Of a stretch of 64,000 nt of DNA, positions 43,655-63,829 are shown piece by piece; position 1 is the first letter of the stretch, and each line of letters starts with the position of its first letter. The notes under the pieces are model-generated. The model ran no database searches, was not told the DNA's origin, and saw only the letters and a program-made list of their open reading frames with translations. This stretch comes from Escherichia coli. Its GTDB lineage: Bacteria; Pseudomonadota; Gammaproteobacteria; Enterobacterales; Enterobacteriaceae. The stretch is taken from assembly GCF_003334335.1 (NCBI RefSeq), contig NZ_QOWQ01000001.1; one strand, 5' to 3'. Position numbers and translations under genes: made by a program.

Positions 43655-46600
43655 TTACACCTCCACGCGGCCCAGCAGATAATGATGATGCTGGTGGACA
43701 TGGCTGATGATGCGGCACATATCGTTCAGCTCCGGTGGTACGTTGTTAAACTGACCTTTGCTGTCGATGTTTAACACCCAGCTTTGGTTATTCAGACGTA
43801 CTCGTACCCGGCAATCTTCCACAAGGAAGCCTGGGTTGCTGCTGTTATCAAAGTCTTGCGCCAGGCTGAAGACGGTGATTTTGTCTTTGTACGGTTTACC
43901 GTTCCACGGACAGAACTGAGCGCAGTTGCCGCATTCGTTACAGTAAGCGTCGAGGTGCAGCGTCTGGAAACGGTTCTGGAAGCCTGGGACCGCAATGGAG
44001 ACGTTGGCGCGGTTCGGGCAGACATCCACACACTTGCTGCAAACGTAGTTACATTCGAGGCAGCGAGCGGCTTCCTGGGCGACAAACGCGTCACGATCGT
44101 CACTGTTCACCAGCGTGATAGAGATATCGCCTTTACGTTGATAGATTTCCGCTGGATTGACGTTGTTCCAGTATTTATCGTTCTGGTGGGAACGGATATT
44201 TTCCCGACTAAGGATGGCATCGGTCGCCCGACGCGCGGTTCCGACAGCAGCGACAATGGAGGATGGTCCGCGCTGTACGTCGCCGATCATAAAGACGTCA
44301 GTCAGACGAGTTTCGCCATTATGGTCGACGTCTGGCCAGCCGTTTTTGTCCAGCGGCACGCCCATCGCATTCAGGGCTTCAGTATCCTGCTGTTCACCAA
44401 TGGCGGTGATCAGGCTGTCTACAAGCAGTGTTACTGTTTCATTGGTTTCAACCGGACGACGACGACCTTTCTCATCCGGTTCGCCAAGCGACATAACGCG
44501 CAAGGTTAAGGTGCCATCAGCATCGAAACGTTCCGGATTATTCAGGAAACGGAACTCTACGCCGTCGTGCAACGCTTCTTCATACTCTTCGCGCCATGCG
44601 GGCATCTCTTGTAGTGAACGACGGTAAACGATCGTTGCTTTTTCTACGCCTGGAACGCGTAACGCCGCACGAGCGCAGTCCATTGCGGTGTTACCCGCCC
44701 CGACAACGACCACATGTTTGCCCAGCTTGAGCGCTGTACCCTTGTTGTATTCACGCAGGAAGGGGAGTGATTTCCAGACATTTTGGTTGTCGCCCGCCAG
44801 TTTCACACCGCTATTTTTATCAGTGCCGGTGGCAATCAGAACATAGTGGAAGCCCTGATTTTTTAACTGCTCAATGGTTAAATCGGGTGAGCAGCCATAC
44901 TCAAATTTCACGCCGTGAGCGGCAACAAAATCGATATCGTGCTGAATTAACTCTGCAGGAATACGGAACTGAGGAATGATATTTTTCACCACGCCGCCCG
45001 CATTGGCTTCGCGTTCAAACAGCGTAACCGGATGGCCCGCTCTGGCAAGGAAGTAACCTGCTGCCAGACCCGCCGGACCTGCACCAATCACGGCAACCGG
45101 ATGGCGTGAACCAGAACCGGCTGGTTTGTGCCAGCGTTGCTTATATTCATCCCAACCTTTTTCCAGCGCGACTTTTTTCAGTTCGCGGATATTCAGCGCA
45201 CTGTCGTAATCCAGGCGGGTACAGTTGTATTGGCACTGGTGATCGCAAATATGACCGGTAATGGCGGGCAGAGCGTTGCGTTGGTAGATGAGTTCCAGCG
45301 CGTCGGCATAGCGGTGTTCGCCAAGCAGACGGATGTATTCCGGAATATCTTGCTTGATAGCGCAGGCAGTAACACAGGGGGCAACGTAGCAGTCGGTCAG
45401 CGGCAGGTCTTCTGCCACTTCAATACGCTCTTCTGGCTTCCAGTGTTTCTGGGTGTATTCCATGGTTAACGCATCTGCTGCCAGTCTGTTCAGTCGTTCG
45501 ACGTCAACATGGTCAAGTCCCCAGGCGTCGGAGCCTTCCAGCTCGCGCATGCAGGCACTTAAGCGCAGATAGCCGCCAGGTTTCAGCAGGTCGGTTGCCA
45601 TAGTAATAGGGCGAATACCTGTATCAAAAATATCGCGGATAGTCAGCTGACTGGCACCACCGGAATAAGAAATGGGCAGTTTGCCGTCAAAGGCGCGAGA
45701 GAGAACTGCTGCAACATTGATGGAGAGCGGGAACAGCGCACGGCCTGACATATACATCTCTTCACCAGGCAGTGCGCCTTTATTGTTGATGGTGCCGAGA
45801 GTGTTAGTCAGTTTTACGCCAAAGCCGAGTGATTTTTCTTTTGCCAGTGCCATCAGGCGTTCCAGCATTTCCAGTGCTTGCGTCAGCTTGAGGTCGTGAT
45901 CAAATGACTCTTCTTTTAAGCCTATGTAACCGAAACCGCAGACATCGAGGATCTCACGAACACGCGCGTACCCCAGTAAGGTCGGGTTAAGTTTCACAAA
46001 GGTGTTGAGCCCTTTTTCTTCCAGCATGTAGCGGCAAATGGCTTCGATTTCATGCGGAGGACAGCCGTGCATGGTGGAGAGGGTGACGCCATGCACCATA
46101 CTGGTGGGGATGCGAGCGGGTAAGGCTTGCAAGCTTTCGCGTTTTTCCTGCAATCCGTGGCGAGCTAAAAATGCGTCATCCTGGAGTAATTTATTCAGCG
46201 TATCGCGATATTGAGCGAATTTCGGATGGTCAGATGCGTCCATCATATTGTCGATGAACTGTTGCATCGGCGGTTGCTTAATACCTTCGAGGTTGTAACC
46301 GACGCTCATATTAAAGATGAACGATTTACCGGAATCAGAAGGCTGGAACATCGCTTCGAGAAGGTGCAGGGCAAACCAGGCTTTGAGGTATTCATCCCAG
46401 GCTTTAAGCAGGGTAAATTCGGTAGACCATTCGGTGTTAAAGCACTCGTCTTCGGCATCGATACAGGGCTTTTCCAGCTCCAGGCGGTCAAGAATTTGGA
46501 CGGTTTTTAGTTCGATGAAGCGTCCGCCAGTCAGCCAGGAAGTGACAATATTTTGCGCGAGCTGCGTGTGCGGGCCAGCGGCAGGGCCGACGGGAGTGGC

Positions 46601-46753
46601 ACAGGTTTCACCGAAGACGCTAACAGTTTTACCTTTTACAGGTGAGTAAAACTGTTGCTCGGGAATACCAAAGATTGAGCGTTGTTGTTGGTATTCATCA
46701 AATATGCGCGTCAAAAGTTCCTCAAACGGAATGGGACGCATAATATCCCCCAT
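43655..46753 (-). CDS. ygfK: Large flavo-iron-sulfur oxidoreductase: barrel domain + GltD-like FeS/FAD/NAD(P)H + 2x[4Fe-4S]. Historically annotated as a putative selenate reductase subunit
   Basis: 1032-aa ORF. Motifs are VKLTNTLG / SYSGGAS (FMN-barrel-like), [67 protein letters not shown] and CNECGNCAQFCP. Confidence 0.92.
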   Translation of the reverse strand: MGDIMRPIPFEELLTRIFDEYQQQRSIFGIPEQQFYSPVKGKTVSVFGETCATPVGPAAGPHTQLAQNIVTSWLTGGRFIELKTVQILDRLELEKPCIDAEDECFNTEWSTEFTLLKAWDEYLKAWFALHLLEAMFQPSDSGKSFIFNMSVGYNLEGIKQPPMQQFIDNMMDASDHPKFAQYRDTLNKLLQDDAFLARHGLQEKRESLQALPARIPTSMVHGVTLSTMHGCPPHEIEAICRYMLEEKGLNTFVKLNPTLLGYARVREILDVCGFGYIGLKEESFDHDLKLTQALEMLERLMALAKEKSLGFGVKLTNTLGTINNKGALPGEEMYMSGRALFPLSINVAAVLSRAFDGKLPISYSGGASQLTIRDIFDTGIRPITMATDLLKPGGYLRLSACMRELEGSDAWGLDHVDVERLNRLAADALTMEYTQKHWKPEERIEVAEDLPLTDCYVAPCVTACAIKQDIPEYIRLLGEHRYADALELIYQRNALPAITGHICDHQCQYNCTRLDYDSALNIRELKKVALEKGWDEYKQRWHKPAGSGSRHPVAVIGAGPAGLAAGYFLARAGHPVTLFEREANAGGVVKNIIPQFRIPAELIQHDIDFVAAHGVKFEYGCSPDLTIEQLKNQGFHYVLIATGTDKNSGVKLAGDNQNVWKSLPFLREYNKGTALKLGKHVVVVGAGNTAMDCARAALRVPGVEKATIVYRRSLQEMPAWREEYEEALHDGVEFRFLNNPERFDADGTLTLRVMSLGEPDEKGRRRPVETNETVTLLVDSLITAIGEQQDTEALNAMGVPLDKNGWPDVDHNGETRLTDVFMIGDVQRGPSSIVAAVGTARRATDAILSRENIRSHQNDKYWNNVNPAEIYQRKGDISITLVNSDDRDAFVAQEAARCLECNYVCSKCVDVCPNRANVSIAVPGFQNRFQTLHLDAYCNECGNCAQFCPWNGKPYKDKITVFSLAQDFDNSSNPGFLVEDCRVRVRLNNQSWVLNIDSKGQFNNVPPELNDMCRIISHVHQHHHYLLGRVEV

Positions 46754-46825
46754 AACCCTCTCCTTAGCTTATACAGATATCATTGAGTGACCGGTGTTGA
46801 GAAATCCGGTGGTTTAGGGGGATAG

Positions 46826-46841
46826 AGCAACAATCGCACCA
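46826..46841 (-). promoter_or_regulatory. Candidate sigma54 (-24/-12) promoter reading into ygfK-ssnA-ygfM-xdhD
   Basis: The minus strand reads GTGGTGC-GATTG-TTGCT. GG-N10-GC spacing is exact and the -12 TTGCT is perfect. The -12 GC is about 75 nt upstream of the ygfK ATG. Confidence 0.45.
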
Positions 46842-46904
46842 CTCTTGCCAGGTTTGGCGGGAAATATAAAAAAATGTGAGGCGGCTCGAAACTTAAGGGC
46901 TTTT

Positions 46905-46920
46905 TGTGAATGAACTCACA
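46905..46920. promoter_or_regulatory. Perfect CRP-consensus palindrome TGTGA-N6-TCACA upstream of ygfK
   Basis: TGTGAATGAACTCACA was read directly. It is centred about 70 bp upstream of the -24 element, with an A-tract (AAATATAAAAAAA, 46862-46874) in between. Confidence 0.5.
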
Positions 46921-47051
46921 GGTGCTAAATGAGAATTAAAATCACTCCTGAAAATTATTATTGCCAGCCCATTTATCAATTTTTCTCTTTTCTCAAAATC
47001 AGTGATTCCTTATCATTATGATAATGAGTGCCGGAAGGATTAAATATTTGA

Positions 47052-47067
47052 ACGCAATCGTTTAACT
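47052..47067. promoter_or_regulatory. PurR-box-like palindrome just downstream of the mocA stop, far upstream of ygfK
   Basis: ACGCAATCGTTTAACT matches ACGCAAACGTTTGCGT at 12/16; the left half matches 7/8. Confidence 0.3.
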
Positions 47068-47074
47068 ACGTTTT

Positions 47075-47653
47075 CTAAATTTCAGTATACCTTTCCTTCG
47101 CTGTAATAAAGTCGTCCGGAGTATCAATATCTAAAATTATTTCTGCATTTTCTATTTCGACGGAATAATGATCTCCCATAAGGAGTGCCTGACGCATATT
47201 GGTGACATTGGGTCGTTGGATTGCCTGCATCAGGCATGGTTTTGACACTAAAATCGGATGGCCGGGGATGCCATTATGGAGTGGCAGTATTGCGCCATCA
47301 TTTCGTAACGACCAGATTTTTCTAAAAATATCGATGGTGAGGGTTGGCATGTCACCGTGGGTGAGAAAACAATGTTCTGTTTGCACTGCGGGTACTGCGG
47401 CCTTGACGGATGTTAGTAAACCCTGCGCATAATCTGGGTTGTGAATAATAGTGATATTGCTCTGGTTCGCATAACGTTCGTGCAGTTCATTACCACGATA
47501 GCCGGTGACTAAAATAATTCGGCTACAAAACTGCAACGCATTTTTGATACTTGTATCAAGAATTGTTCCCTGTTCCCAGGGTAACATCATTTTCCATTGC
47601 CCCATTCTTGATGATAATCCGGCAGCGGTAATTATACAGTCGATGGCTGACAT
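47075..47653 (-). CDS. mocA: Molybdenum cofactor cytidylyltransferase (makes MCD for xanthine-dehydrogenase-family enzymes)
   Basis: 192-aa ORF MSAIDCIITAAGLSSRMGQWKMMLPW... (MobA-like NTP-transferase fold). Visibly lower GC than its neighbours. Confidence 0.92.
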   Translation of the reverse strand: MSAIDCIITAAGLSSRMGQWKMMLPWEQGTILDTSIKNALQFCSRIILVTGYRGNELHERYANQSNITIIHNPDYAQGLLTSVKAAVPAVQTEHCFLTHGDMPTLTIDIFRKIWSLRNDGAILPLHNGIPGHPILVSKPCLMQAIQRPNVTNMRQALLMGDHYSVEIENAEIILDIDTPDDFITAKERYTEI

Positions 47654-51399: not shown

Positions 51400-52785
51400 T
51401 TAGAGCACGGGAGGGACAAACGGTTTGCGTCGCAGGAAACGACCTCGCCCGGCTTTGCCTGTAAAGGTGCCGTCACAGAAAATCGTTTCACCACGGGATA
51501 AGGTTCTGACAATCGCGCCCTGACAGGTAAAACCCTCCCATGGCGAGTAGTCGGCGTTGTCGTGGAGATGGCGATGCTGAATTTGTTGGCTCTGACGTGG
51601 GTCGATAATCACCACGTCGCCGTCGGAACCGGGCGCTAATAATCCTTTTTGCGGCCACAGGCCAAACAACCTGGCGGGCATTGCGCTGGTTAATTCAACA
51701 AAGCGTTCCGGTGTTATACGTCCCGTCATCACGCCACTGGAAAACAGTAACTGCATGCGGTTTTCCACACCGGGTAAGCCATTTGGGCAGCGACTGAAAT
51801 CGCCTTTAGAAATTTGCAGGCGTTGAGCCATCGAGAAGGTGCAGTGATCGGTTGCCACCACGTCAATCGCACCATCGCTGATGCCACACCACAGTTTGTC
51901 CTGCTCGCGTACGTTACGCAGCGGTGGGCTAAGAATGAACTTCATGCCATCTTCTGTATCGTAACTGCGTTCGTCCAACAGGAGATATTGTGGGCAGGTT
52001 TCAACCCAGACTGGCTGGTGATTCGCACGGGCAAGACGCAGATAATCCAGACCTAAGCCGTTAGACAGGTGCACGATATAGAGCGGGGCGTTACCGGCAA
52101 TTTGTGCCAGGTTAATCATGCGGGCGATGGCTTCCGCTTCGCATTCCAGAGGGCGACTCAAGGCATGATAGCGCGGCGCGGTTAACCCTGCGGCGATAAA
52201 TTCCGCCCGCTTGCTGGCGATAGCCGCATCATTTTCCGGGTGCACGGTGGTCAGCGCGCCGGATTCATGCAAGCGGCGTAATGCCTGCAAAACCTCGTCA
52301 TCGTTGAGTTTGTATTGATAGGTTAAATAGAGTTTAAAACTGCTCAGTCCTTCCTCGACCATCATCGGGATTTCGTCGAGGATTGCGTGATTAATGTGCT
52401 GGATCACACCGTGAAAGCTGTAATCGATGACCGCTTTATGGGCGGCATAACCACGATAAACCTCCAGTTGATGGCGTAACCGACAGCCGTTTGGGCCAAA
52501 TCCCATATGGTCAATAATGGTTGTTGTACCGCCACACGCAGCTGCGCGGGTACCGGTAAAAAAATCATCACAACTGCGCGCGATGCCGACATCAATATTG
52601 AAATGCGTATGGACATCCACGCCGCCAGGGAAAACGTAACAGCCAGTGGCATCAATTTCTTCATACGGGAGCTGCGGCGAAATATTGTTGCCCAACTGGC
52701 GAACAATCCCGCTTTCAATCAGCAAATCCTGTTTGGCTTGTCCATCTGCGTTAACGACAGTGCCGTTTTTGATCAATACGCGCAT
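51400..52785 (-). CDS. hyuA: Cyclic amidohydrolase of the hydantoinase/dihydropyrimidinase family (D-phenylhydantoinase, YgeZ)
   Basis: ORF trimmed to ATG 52785 (MRVLIKNGTVVNADGQ...), 461 aa. Metal motif PGGVDVHTHF. Confidence 0.93.
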   Translation of the reverse strand: MRVLIKNGTVVNADGQAKQDLLIESGIVRQLGNNISPQLPYEEIDATGCYVFPGGVDVHTHFNIDVGIARSCDDFFTGTRAAACGGTTTIIDHMGFGPNGCRLRHQLEVYRGYAAHKAVIDYSFHGVIQHINHAILDEIPMMVEEGLSSFKLYLTYQYKLNDDEVLQALRRLHESGALTTVHPENDAAIASKRAEFIAAGLTAPRYHALSRPLECEAEAIARMINLAQIAGNAPLYIVHLSNGLGLDYLRLARANHQPVWVETCPQYLLLDERSYDTEDGMKFILSPPLRNVREQDKLWCGISDGAIDVVATDHCTFSMAQRLQISKGDFSRCPNGLPGVENRMQLLFSSGVMTGRITPERFVELTSAMPARLFGLWPQKGLLAPGSDGDVVIIDPRQSQQIQHRHLHDNADYSPWEGFTCQGAIVRTLSRGETIFCDGTFTGKAGRGRFLRRKPFVPPVL

Positions 52786-56641: not shown

Positions 56642-56657
56642 AACAATAAGTGTGCCA
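56642..56657 (-). promoter_or_regulatory. Candidate sigma54 (-24/-12) promoter reading into ygeW-dpaL-ygeY-hyuA-yqeA
   Basis: The minus strand reads CTGGCAC-ACTTA-TTGTT. The -24 element is perfect and spacing is exact, but the -12 element is GT instead of GC. The -12 element is about 95 nt upstream of the ygeW ATG. Confidence 0.4.
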
Positions 56658-63755: not shown

Positions 63756-63829
63756 GCGGGCGTAGTTCAATGGTAGAACGAGAGCTTCCCAAGCTCTATA
63801 CGAGGGTTCGATTCCCTTCGCCCGCTCCA
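63756..63829 (+). tRNA. glyU: tRNA-Gly (anticodon CCC)
   Basis: GCGGGCGTAGTTCAATGGTAGAACGAGAGCTTCCCAAGCTCTATACGAGGGTTCGATTCCCTTCGCCCGCTCCA. It has a 7-bp acceptor stem, anticodon loop CTTCCCAAG, a GTTCGATTC T-loop and an encoded CCA. Confidence 0.95.

Follow-up and report, generated by a model that had tools for sequence, protein, structure and literature searches.

YgfK of Escherichia coli as the very probable 2,8-dioxopurine reductase of anaerobic uric acid degradation, with the modules of dihydropyrimidine dehydrogenase in a different order

The gene ygfK of Escherichia coli was analysed in a 64,000-nucleotide stretch of contig NZ_QOWQ01000001.1 (RefSeq assembly GCF_003334335.1), here called the window, in which it occupies positions 43655-46753 of the minus strand, stop codon included. 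It starts with ATG and encodes a protein of 1032 amino acids (aa), the NAD(P)H:2,8-dioxopurine oxidoreductase (DOPOR), where NAD(P)H stands for reduced nicotinamide adenine dinucleotide (phosphate). We conclude that ygfK very probably specifies the NAD(P)H-dependent enzyme that reduces 2,8-dioxopurine (isoxanthine) in the anaerobic, reductive uric acid pathway. A preliminary description of this locus, made from the sequence alone, had listed an open reading frame of 1032 aa at these positions; the frame is real, and its strand is corrected here to minus. All ten peptide strings quoted in that description were found in YgfK in the order given (aa 52-64, 311-320, 335-344, 360-368, 455-477, 502-511, 553-566, 681-694, 898-913 and 938-949).

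The window protein is identical to b2878 of E. coli K-12 MG1655 at 1032 of 1032 residues. On the NCBIfam model TIGR03315 (Se_ygfK; IPR017701), which has its cut-off at 835.3 bits, it scores 1778.7 bits, aa 2-1027 being aligned to profile positions 1-1012. It is the protein on which the DOPOR/YgfK family is founded. The ygfK DNA is 100% identical in many E. coli chromosomes, and the gene is present in 5182 of the 5426 complete E. coli genomes, the remaining 244 giving no match. In two E. coli isolates from ducks (NZ_CP079770.1 and NZ_CP079767.1) a transposase of the IS1X2 family splits the ygfK match in two, and the gene is disrupted.

The N-terminal part of YgfK (aa 1-435; 45449-46753, minus strand) is a (beta/alpha)8 barrel of the kind found in dihydroorotate dehydrogenase (DHOD) and dihydropyrimidine dehydrogenase (DPD), and presumably holds both flavin mononucleotide (FMN) and the substrate. 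Searches by sequence mostly missed it. A Pfam scan of aa 1-450 gave no match at E ≤ 10, so that the DHO_dh model PF01180 does not detect the barrel; BLASTP of the barrel against E. coli PreA was not significant (E 0.55); a family profile of 46 sequences compared with all PDB sequences returned for the barrel only DHODs, at E 1.5-2.3; and hhalign of the family profile against PreA reached a probability of 1.4-1.6%. Aligned to E. coli PyrD with hhalign, the family profile gave an E value of 4.4e-4 and a probability of 34%, aa 5-405 lying end to end on residues 1-336. Since detection by sequence failed or was marginal, the barrel assignment rests on the fold search, in which pig DPD (1gt8_A) scored 23.9 over 290 residues at 16% identity and the two Lactococcus lactis enzymes scored 23.3 (DHOD A) and 22.7 (DHOD B), followed by an old yellow enzyme as the next FMN barrel at 16.7. 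The preliminary description had called this region FMN-barrel-like and had proposed a structural comparison with DPD as a check, and the likeness to pig DPD and to the DHODs upholds its reading, as do the PyrD motif pairs, which are in register.

These pairs, YgfK before PyrD, are GPAAGP with GLAAGL, ELKTVQ with EIGTVT, ECFN with MGFN, GVKLTNT with GVIATNT, MSGRAL with LSGRPL, and PISYSGGA with PIIGVGGI, and the barrel peptides picked out in the preliminary description coincide with these classical FMN and substrate motifs. In a conservation alignment of 48 rows, which includes short forms of YgfK described below, K83, N106, E108, N148, S150, K254, N256, K314, N317, T318, S336, G337, S362, G365 and G366 are invariant in 47 or 48 rows. 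The loop STMHGCPP after barrel strand beta4 (aa 226-233; 46055-46078, minus strand) is invariant in all 48, and the strand that precedes it (aa 220-225) is present in the YgfK model. C231 of this loop and C97 are the only barrel cysteines invariant throughout the alignment. PreA has NFSCPQ at the topologically equivalent place, the site at which DPD and PreA bear their catalytic cysteine. The proton donor is likely to belong to this loop, with C231 (or H229) as candidate for the general acid.

Behind the barrel follows a helical Fe-S segment of the GltD/DPD type (aa 453-532; 45158-45397, minus strand), which is matched by Pfam Fer4_20 ('DPD domain II') at E 3e-16 over profile positions 25-107 of 113. 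Its six conserved cysteines (455, 460, 464, 503, 507 and 511) span 45221-45391 (aa 455-511), and D454 is nearly invariant. The corresponding segment of DPD has seven cysteines and a glutamine. The next module consists of the two dinucleotide folds for flavin adenine dinucleotide (FAD) and NAD(P)H (aa 552-839; 44237-45100, minus strand; Pyr_redox_2, E 3e-42), with GxGxxG motifs at aa 557-562 and 685-690. The fold that binds NAD(P)H (aa 649-794; 44372-44809, minus strand) is exactly the segment that, by gap mapping with MAFFT, homologues of about 877 aa lack. Taken together, aa 455-847 resemble PreT, GltD and NfnB, with 30% identity to E. coli PreT (E 2e-46); the best matches of this central part among PDB sequences are NfnA, StnC, NfnB and GltD, and pig DPD aligns at E 1.3e-30 (YgfK 436-843 on DPD 63-499).

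The 2x[4Fe-4S] ferredoxin module (aa 893-955; 43889-44077, minus strand) was recognised by Fer4_10 (E 7e-6) and by Fer4_7 in the isolated C-terminus. Its first motif (44017-44062, minus strand) is atypical, with five cysteines (C898, C901, C905, C908 and C912) followed by proline, and its second is a canonical CxxCxxCxxxCP (C938, C941, C944 and C948). To judge from the cysteine patterns, the number and ligation of the clusters in the helical segment and at the first ferredoxin motif are uncertain. The protein ends in a tail of about 77 aa, a beta-sheet with a helix (aa 956-1032; 43658-43888, minus strand), which has a predicted local confidence (pLDDT) of about 88-92 in the full-length model and is kept in all architectural variants; the Pfam scan of the isolated C-terminus returned nothing beyond the ferredoxin motifs and hence no match for it. 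All modules named in the preliminary description are therefore present, its two dinucleotide folds without amendment. Its Fe-S helical segment needs the correction that the profile match begins only at position 25 and that six cysteines stand where PreT has eight, its ferredoxin that the first motif has five cysteines, and its list as a whole that the tail, a sixth element, was missing from it.

YgfK begins with the barrel and continues with the Fe-S helical segment, the folds for FAD and NAD(P)H, the ferredoxin and finally the tail. In E. coli PreT/PreA the same modules are split over two genes where YgfK is a single chain, first preT with Fer4_20 and Pyr_redox_2 and then preA, in which DHO_dh covers 6-304 and Fer4_21 covers 338-395; PreT corresponds to YgfK 455-847, and PreA combines a DHO_dh barrel with a 2x[4Fe-4S] domain. 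For DPD, the work of Dobritzsch et al. from 2001 is said to have placed the barrel and ferredoxin C-terminal to the GltD-type part. The permuted order that the preliminary description had pointed out is accordingly seen, with the barrel first in YgfK and the GltD-type part first in DPD and PreT/PreA. The full-length YgfK model (pLDDT 81.9, predicted template modelling score (pTM) 0.65) is not collinear with DPD: collinear fold alignments span one half only, and Foldseek aligned about 490 columns at a template modelling score of 0.35, which is the GltD half alone. YgfK thus has the GltD-type Fe-S helical domain and the FAD/NAD(P)H folds of DPD and PreT/PreA, and also their ferredoxin, which in YgfK lies behind the GltD module and directly behind the barrel only in the short forms; the order Fe-S helical segment, FAD/NAD(P)H folds, barrel, ferredoxin is not that of YgfK. 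YgfK works like DPD and is not a strict member of the DPD family, because both its module order and its failure to match PF01180 set it apart.

Relative to pig DPD/PydA (PDB 1H7X, 1GT8), YgfK has a barrel undetected by PF01180, the additional tail of about 77 aa and a bicyclic purine as substrate; no assay of YgfK with a pyrimidine (uracil or thymine) was found in the texts of the two experimental studies cited below. The NADPH:Fe-S flavoproteins of the NfnB/GltD/StnC type (4YLF_B, 5JCA_L, 6S6S, 8OH5_C) are without a DHOD-type barrel and pass their electrons to partner subunits. The DHODs, especially class 2 (6AJ5, 6B8S; E. coli PyrD), share 14-17% identity with YgfK and give no family hidden Markov model match; YgfK differs from them by a helical insertion of roughly 60 aa (aa ~155-215) and by being wired to Fe-S clusters instead of quinone or fumarate. 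The YgfK barrel also has an N-terminal helix, and the register of its invariant C231/H229 loop behind beta4 is ambiguous.

The function of YgfK has been addressed experimentally in two studies from 2025, which a commentary sums up together. Liu et al. (bioRxiv 10.1101/2025.04.24.650524) cloned the genes of K-12 MG1655, whose ygfK product is identical to the window protein. They found that ygfK mutants of Clostridium sporogenes accumulate 2,8-dioxopurine, that purified E. coli YgfK needs NADPH and not NADH, that selenate is neither needed by the enzyme nor stimulates it, and that, when xanthine, 2,8-dioxopurine and 6,8-dioxopurine are offered as a mixture, only 2,8-dioxopurine is converted, to an unstable compound, UA-3. 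They named the enzyme NADPH:2,8-dioxopurine oxidoreductase, showed SsnA to open the six-membered ring and HyuA afterwards the hydantoin, and called the N-terminal domain of YgfK 'of unknown function'. Li et al. (Life Metab 2025, PMC12507026) described the same pathway with E. coli YgfK, the source strain being unnamed in the text. In their work XdhD-YgfM first reduces urate by dehydroxylation at C6 to 2,8-dioxopurine, and YgfK, together with SsnA and NAD(P)H, turns this into ureidomethyl-hydantoin, which a delta-ygfK strain does not form; they reconstituted the [4Fe-4S] clusters of YgfK and drew an explicit parallel with PydA/PydB, which act in the reductive breakdown of pyrimidines.

With these studies the substrate, the dependence on NAD(P)H, the irrelevance of selenate and the order YgfK-SsnA-HyuA are established for E. 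coli YgfK. The preliminary description had inferred that YgfK reduces a purine or urate ring in place of selenate and supplies SsnA and then HyuA, and the published experiments agree with it on both counts. Its choice of substrate holds for a purine, namely 2,8-dioxopurine, and fails for xanthine and 6,8-dioxopurine, urate being dehydroxylated by XdhD-YgfM beforehand; 8-oxopurines were among the compounds that it proposed to assay. The function of YgfK and its resemblance to DPD had, however, already been published, and the inference was right but known.

The modules suggest how the reaction could proceed. NADPH would reduce FAD in the GltD/NfnB-like module (aa ~550-850). Single electrons would then move along the Fe-S clusters, those in the helical segment (453-532) and those in the ferredoxin near the C-terminus (893-955), and arrive at FMN in the barrel of DHOD/DPD type at the N-terminus (aa ~40-410). 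This sequence of carriers (NADPH, FAD, helical-segment clusters, ferredoxin clusters, FMN) is proposed by analogy with DPD, and FMN would be the hydride donor. The reduced FMN would deliver a hydride to C6 of the substrate, and the acid of the beta4 loop (C231 or H229) would protonate C5. The bond concerned is presumably C5=C6, as in the reduction of uracil; ureidomethyl-hydantoin has C6 as CH2 and C5 as CH, and hydrogen must therefore have been added across C5/C6. The dihydro product would be unstable and would be hydrolysed by SsnA to ureidomethyl-hydantoin, the ring of which HyuA would then open.

Several points weigh against this account or parts of it. The electron donor is disputed, being NADPH only according to Liu et al. 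and NAD(P)H, with NADH in the assays, according to Li et al. On this question we note that 185 of 185 long homologues carry a YRR motif (aa 709-711; 44621-44629, minus strand) past the second strand of the second Rossmann fold, at the place where the NADH-dependent PreT has ARE; by sequence it would fit the NADPH preference of Liu et al. better than the NADH with which Li et al. ran their assays. The two studies also differ on the product, YgfK alone yielding the unstable UA-3 in the one and nothing without SsnA in the other, and the structure of UA-3 is provisional (Liu et al.). No experimental structure and no flavin or iron stoichiometry was found in the texts of Liu et al. or Li et al. As regards the predictions, two full clusters are not guaranteed by the six cysteines of the helical segment against the eight of PreT, the pTM of the full-length model is just 0.65 and its inter-domain geometry is unreliable, and the register of the beta4 loop is ambiguous, with hhalign pairing YgfK GCPP with PreA GQSP and not with NFSCPQ.

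Other explanations of the gene were weighed against a 2,8-dioxopurine reductase. YgfK has been regarded as the Fe-S subunit of a selenate reductase formed with YgfM and XdhD (YgfN), a label that reportedly goes back to a genetic screen of 2002 for loss of selenate reduction. It is preserved in the name of TIGR03315, 'putative selenate reductase subunit YgfK', and ygfK/M/N are listed as selenate reductase subunits by Haft and Self (2008). An enzyme that, once purified, neither requires nor responds to selenate (Liu et al.), that has no molybdopterin domain in the Pfam scan and that carries a complete substrate barrel of the DHOD/DPD type does not suit such a role, and in every genome examined its gene stands beside ring-opening amidohydrolases and not beside selenium-respiration genes. 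We therefore reject this explanation as extremely improbable. That YgfK might act directly on urate or xanthine would accord with a cluster that is induced by urate and degrades it, and that is flanked by xanQ, uacT and guaD. No direct test of urate as a substrate of YgfK was found in the text of the 2025 studies. Direct action on either compound is nevertheless very improbable and was rejected, given that only 2,8-dioxopurine was consumed from the mixture of three isomers (Liu et al.), that ygfK mutants build up this same compound and that XdhD-YgfM produces it upstream of YgfK.

One could also suppose that YgfK is a mere electron-input or electron-transfer partner of XdhD, comparable to AegA/YgfT or GltD, with an N-terminal domain of structural importance only. 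The central 400 aa are indeed GltD/NfnB-like, and two relatives, YgfT and AegA, serve electron transfer in the utilisation of urate. XdhD, however, already has an FAD subunit of its own in YgfM; the residues of the FMN and substrate motifs in YgfK are invariant; and the protein acts on 2,8-dioxopurine in vitro, alone or together with SsnA. Moreover, the short forms drop the whole GltD module and keep the barrel and ferredoxin, which marks the barrel as the conserved functional core. On these grounds a pure electron-transfer subunit was rejected, and we give it next to no probability.

Homology searches also revealed two recurrent architectural variants, whose gaps were mapped by MAFFT. The short form, with a length of ~570-590 aa and at least 35 clusters at 90% identity, is without YgfK aa ~455-900, that is, the whole GltD module; its barrel is joined straight to the ferredoxin (LPLFDC-xxCxxCxxxCPNRAN) and the tail is kept. 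Short forms are encoded by Clostridium magnum and C. psychrophilum, by Blautia intestinalis and by several metagenome-assembled genomes (MAGs) of Bacillota; loci include L002:10001-11722, L005:10001-11707, L008:6001-7767 and L022:6001-7755, with further proteins under P0063, P0117 and P0241-P0269. Mid-sized YgfK proteins (~877-883 aa) of Desulfosporosinus (L006:10001-12634, P0280; further members P0270-P0284) lack exactly aa 649-794, the second dinucleotide fold, which binds NAD(P)H, and retain the Fe-S helical segment, FAD fold, ferredoxin and tail. In E. coli YgfK the first ferredoxin motif is where the GltD cassette sits, at its first cysteine (LPLxDC | ... | CxxCxxxCPNRAN).

The gene context was inspected for five short forms and one mid form, and all six lie in uricolytic clusters with XDH, OTCase, M20 and PALP genes. 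An SsnA-like amidohydrolase gene (442-454 aa) adjoins the variant gene or, in one case, is 3.7 kb away, so that adjacency of ygfK and ssnA is seen across the three architectures. The amidohydrolase is the next gene downstream in C. psychrophilum (L005) and C. magnum DSM 2767 (L008) and the next gene upstream in B. intestinalis (L022), and in the Desulfosporosinus mid form a 442-aa SsnA-like gene lies directly downstream. The exception is the Bacillota MAG L002, in which the amidohydrolase is on the other strand and is separated from the variant gene by XdhD-like and transposase-like (Y1_Tnp) genes.

From these observations it appears somewhat more probable than not that the barrel of YgfK type, the ferredoxin and the tail make up a constant catalytic unit into which a GltD-type cassette is an optional insert, the variants being 2,8-dioxopurine reductases fed by ferredoxin or another partner. 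Such an exchangeable electron-input cassette has a parallel in PreA versus DPD, and another in UacX/PydAc. The Clostridioides difficile UacX and the clostridial PydAc, ferredoxin-dependent proteins with a barrel and Fe-S clusters and no FAD module, are analogous in architecture to short YgfK, and UacX carries out the step of YgfK in its place (Li et al.). UacX belongs to PF01180, whereas the barrel of short YgfK is of the YgfK type, which this model does not recognise. No mention of short or mid variants was found in the main text of Liu et al. or Li et al. The short forms straddle the TIGR03315 cut-off of 835.3 bits, with scores of 773.7 and 848.8, and surveys keyed to this model would therefore not separate them from the long enzyme; family surveys based on IPR017701 would likewise lump at least some variants with long YgfK. 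Both variants point to alternative electron donors, which could matter in choosing enzymes for engineering.

Compared with the K-12 map, the window runs as the reverse complement, and the gene neighbourhoods of the window ygfK and its K-12 counterpart are identical. The order on the minus strand is xdhABC, ygeW, ygeX, ygeY, hyuA, yqeA, mocA, ygfK, ssnA, ygfM, xdhD, xanQ, guaD, ghxQ, with interspersed genes on the plus strand, namely ygeV between xdhC and ygeW, and yqeB and yqeC between yqeA and mocA. Accordingly ygfK stands within the uricolytic cluster, in the series mocA-ygfK-ssnA-ygfM-xdhD with ygeW/X/Y-hyuA-yqeA upstream. The ssnA gene (42324-43652, minus strand) encodes a 442-aa amidohydrolase (Amidohydro_1, E 2.5e-56) that opens the reduced pyrimidine ring (Li et al., Liu et al.). 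Its ATG at 43652 lies 2 nt past the TAA of ygfK, just as the preliminary description had noted, and at this distance the two genes may be coupled in translation. Transcribed in the same direction are ygfM (41494-42273, minus strand) and xdhD (38627-41497, minus strand), both placed from the annotation of the identical region, whose products together form the molybdenum hydroxylase that converts urate to 2,8-dioxopurine (Li et al.). The gene for the 461-aa HyuA (51400-52785, minus strand; Amidohydro_1), which according to the literature acts on the product of SsnA and opens its hydantoin ring, belongs to a separate unit, ygeW-ygeX-ygeY-hyuA-yqeA.

YgfK is the dearomatising step that lets gut anaerobes degrade uric acid, and it is of relevance to hyperuricaemia, gout and engineered uricolytic probiotics, for which the experimental case was already made in 2025. 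What the present analysis adds is independent structural evidence for a DHOD/DPD barrel that no Pfam model sees, and an explicit order of the modules. Smaller new points are the architectural variants and a mis-annotation that persists: RefSeq and NCBIfam release 20.0 still use 'putative selenate reductase subunit YgfK'. The K-12 annotation reads 'putative oxidoreductase, Fe-S subunit', the name 'dihydrouracil dehydrogenase' appears in some UniRef entries of orthologues, and genome announcements still cite ygfK as a gene of selenate reduction.

Regulatory signals were sought by pattern. A scan of the whole window for sigma-54 promoters (TGGCAC-N5-TTGCW, at most 2 mismatches) was at chance level, with 47 matches against 44.6 expected. 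Among the matches, and as leads only, a -24/-12-like element with 1 mismatch, TGGCACACTTATTGTT, lies upstream of ygeW (56642-56657, minus strand), and two overlapping candidates lie upstream of ygfK (46826-46849, minus strand); ygeV is a sigma-54 activator gene. Scans for sigma-70 promoters and terminators over 38300-47200 were also at chance level. A GC-rich hairpin of 6 bp with a T-rich tail is located directly past the xdhD stop codon (38602-38617, minus strand) and is a candidate for terminating the ygfK-ssnA-ygfM-xdhD unit, in a region where terminator-like matches occur at chance level. In a search with Rfam, the urate cluster and its surroundings yielded no RNA element. Elsewhere in the window, matches at the Rfam gathering score were 6S RNA (6647-6830, minus strand), Sib RNA (5848-5998, minus strand), naRNA4 (20341-20418, minus strand) and a tRNA (63756-63826, plus strand).

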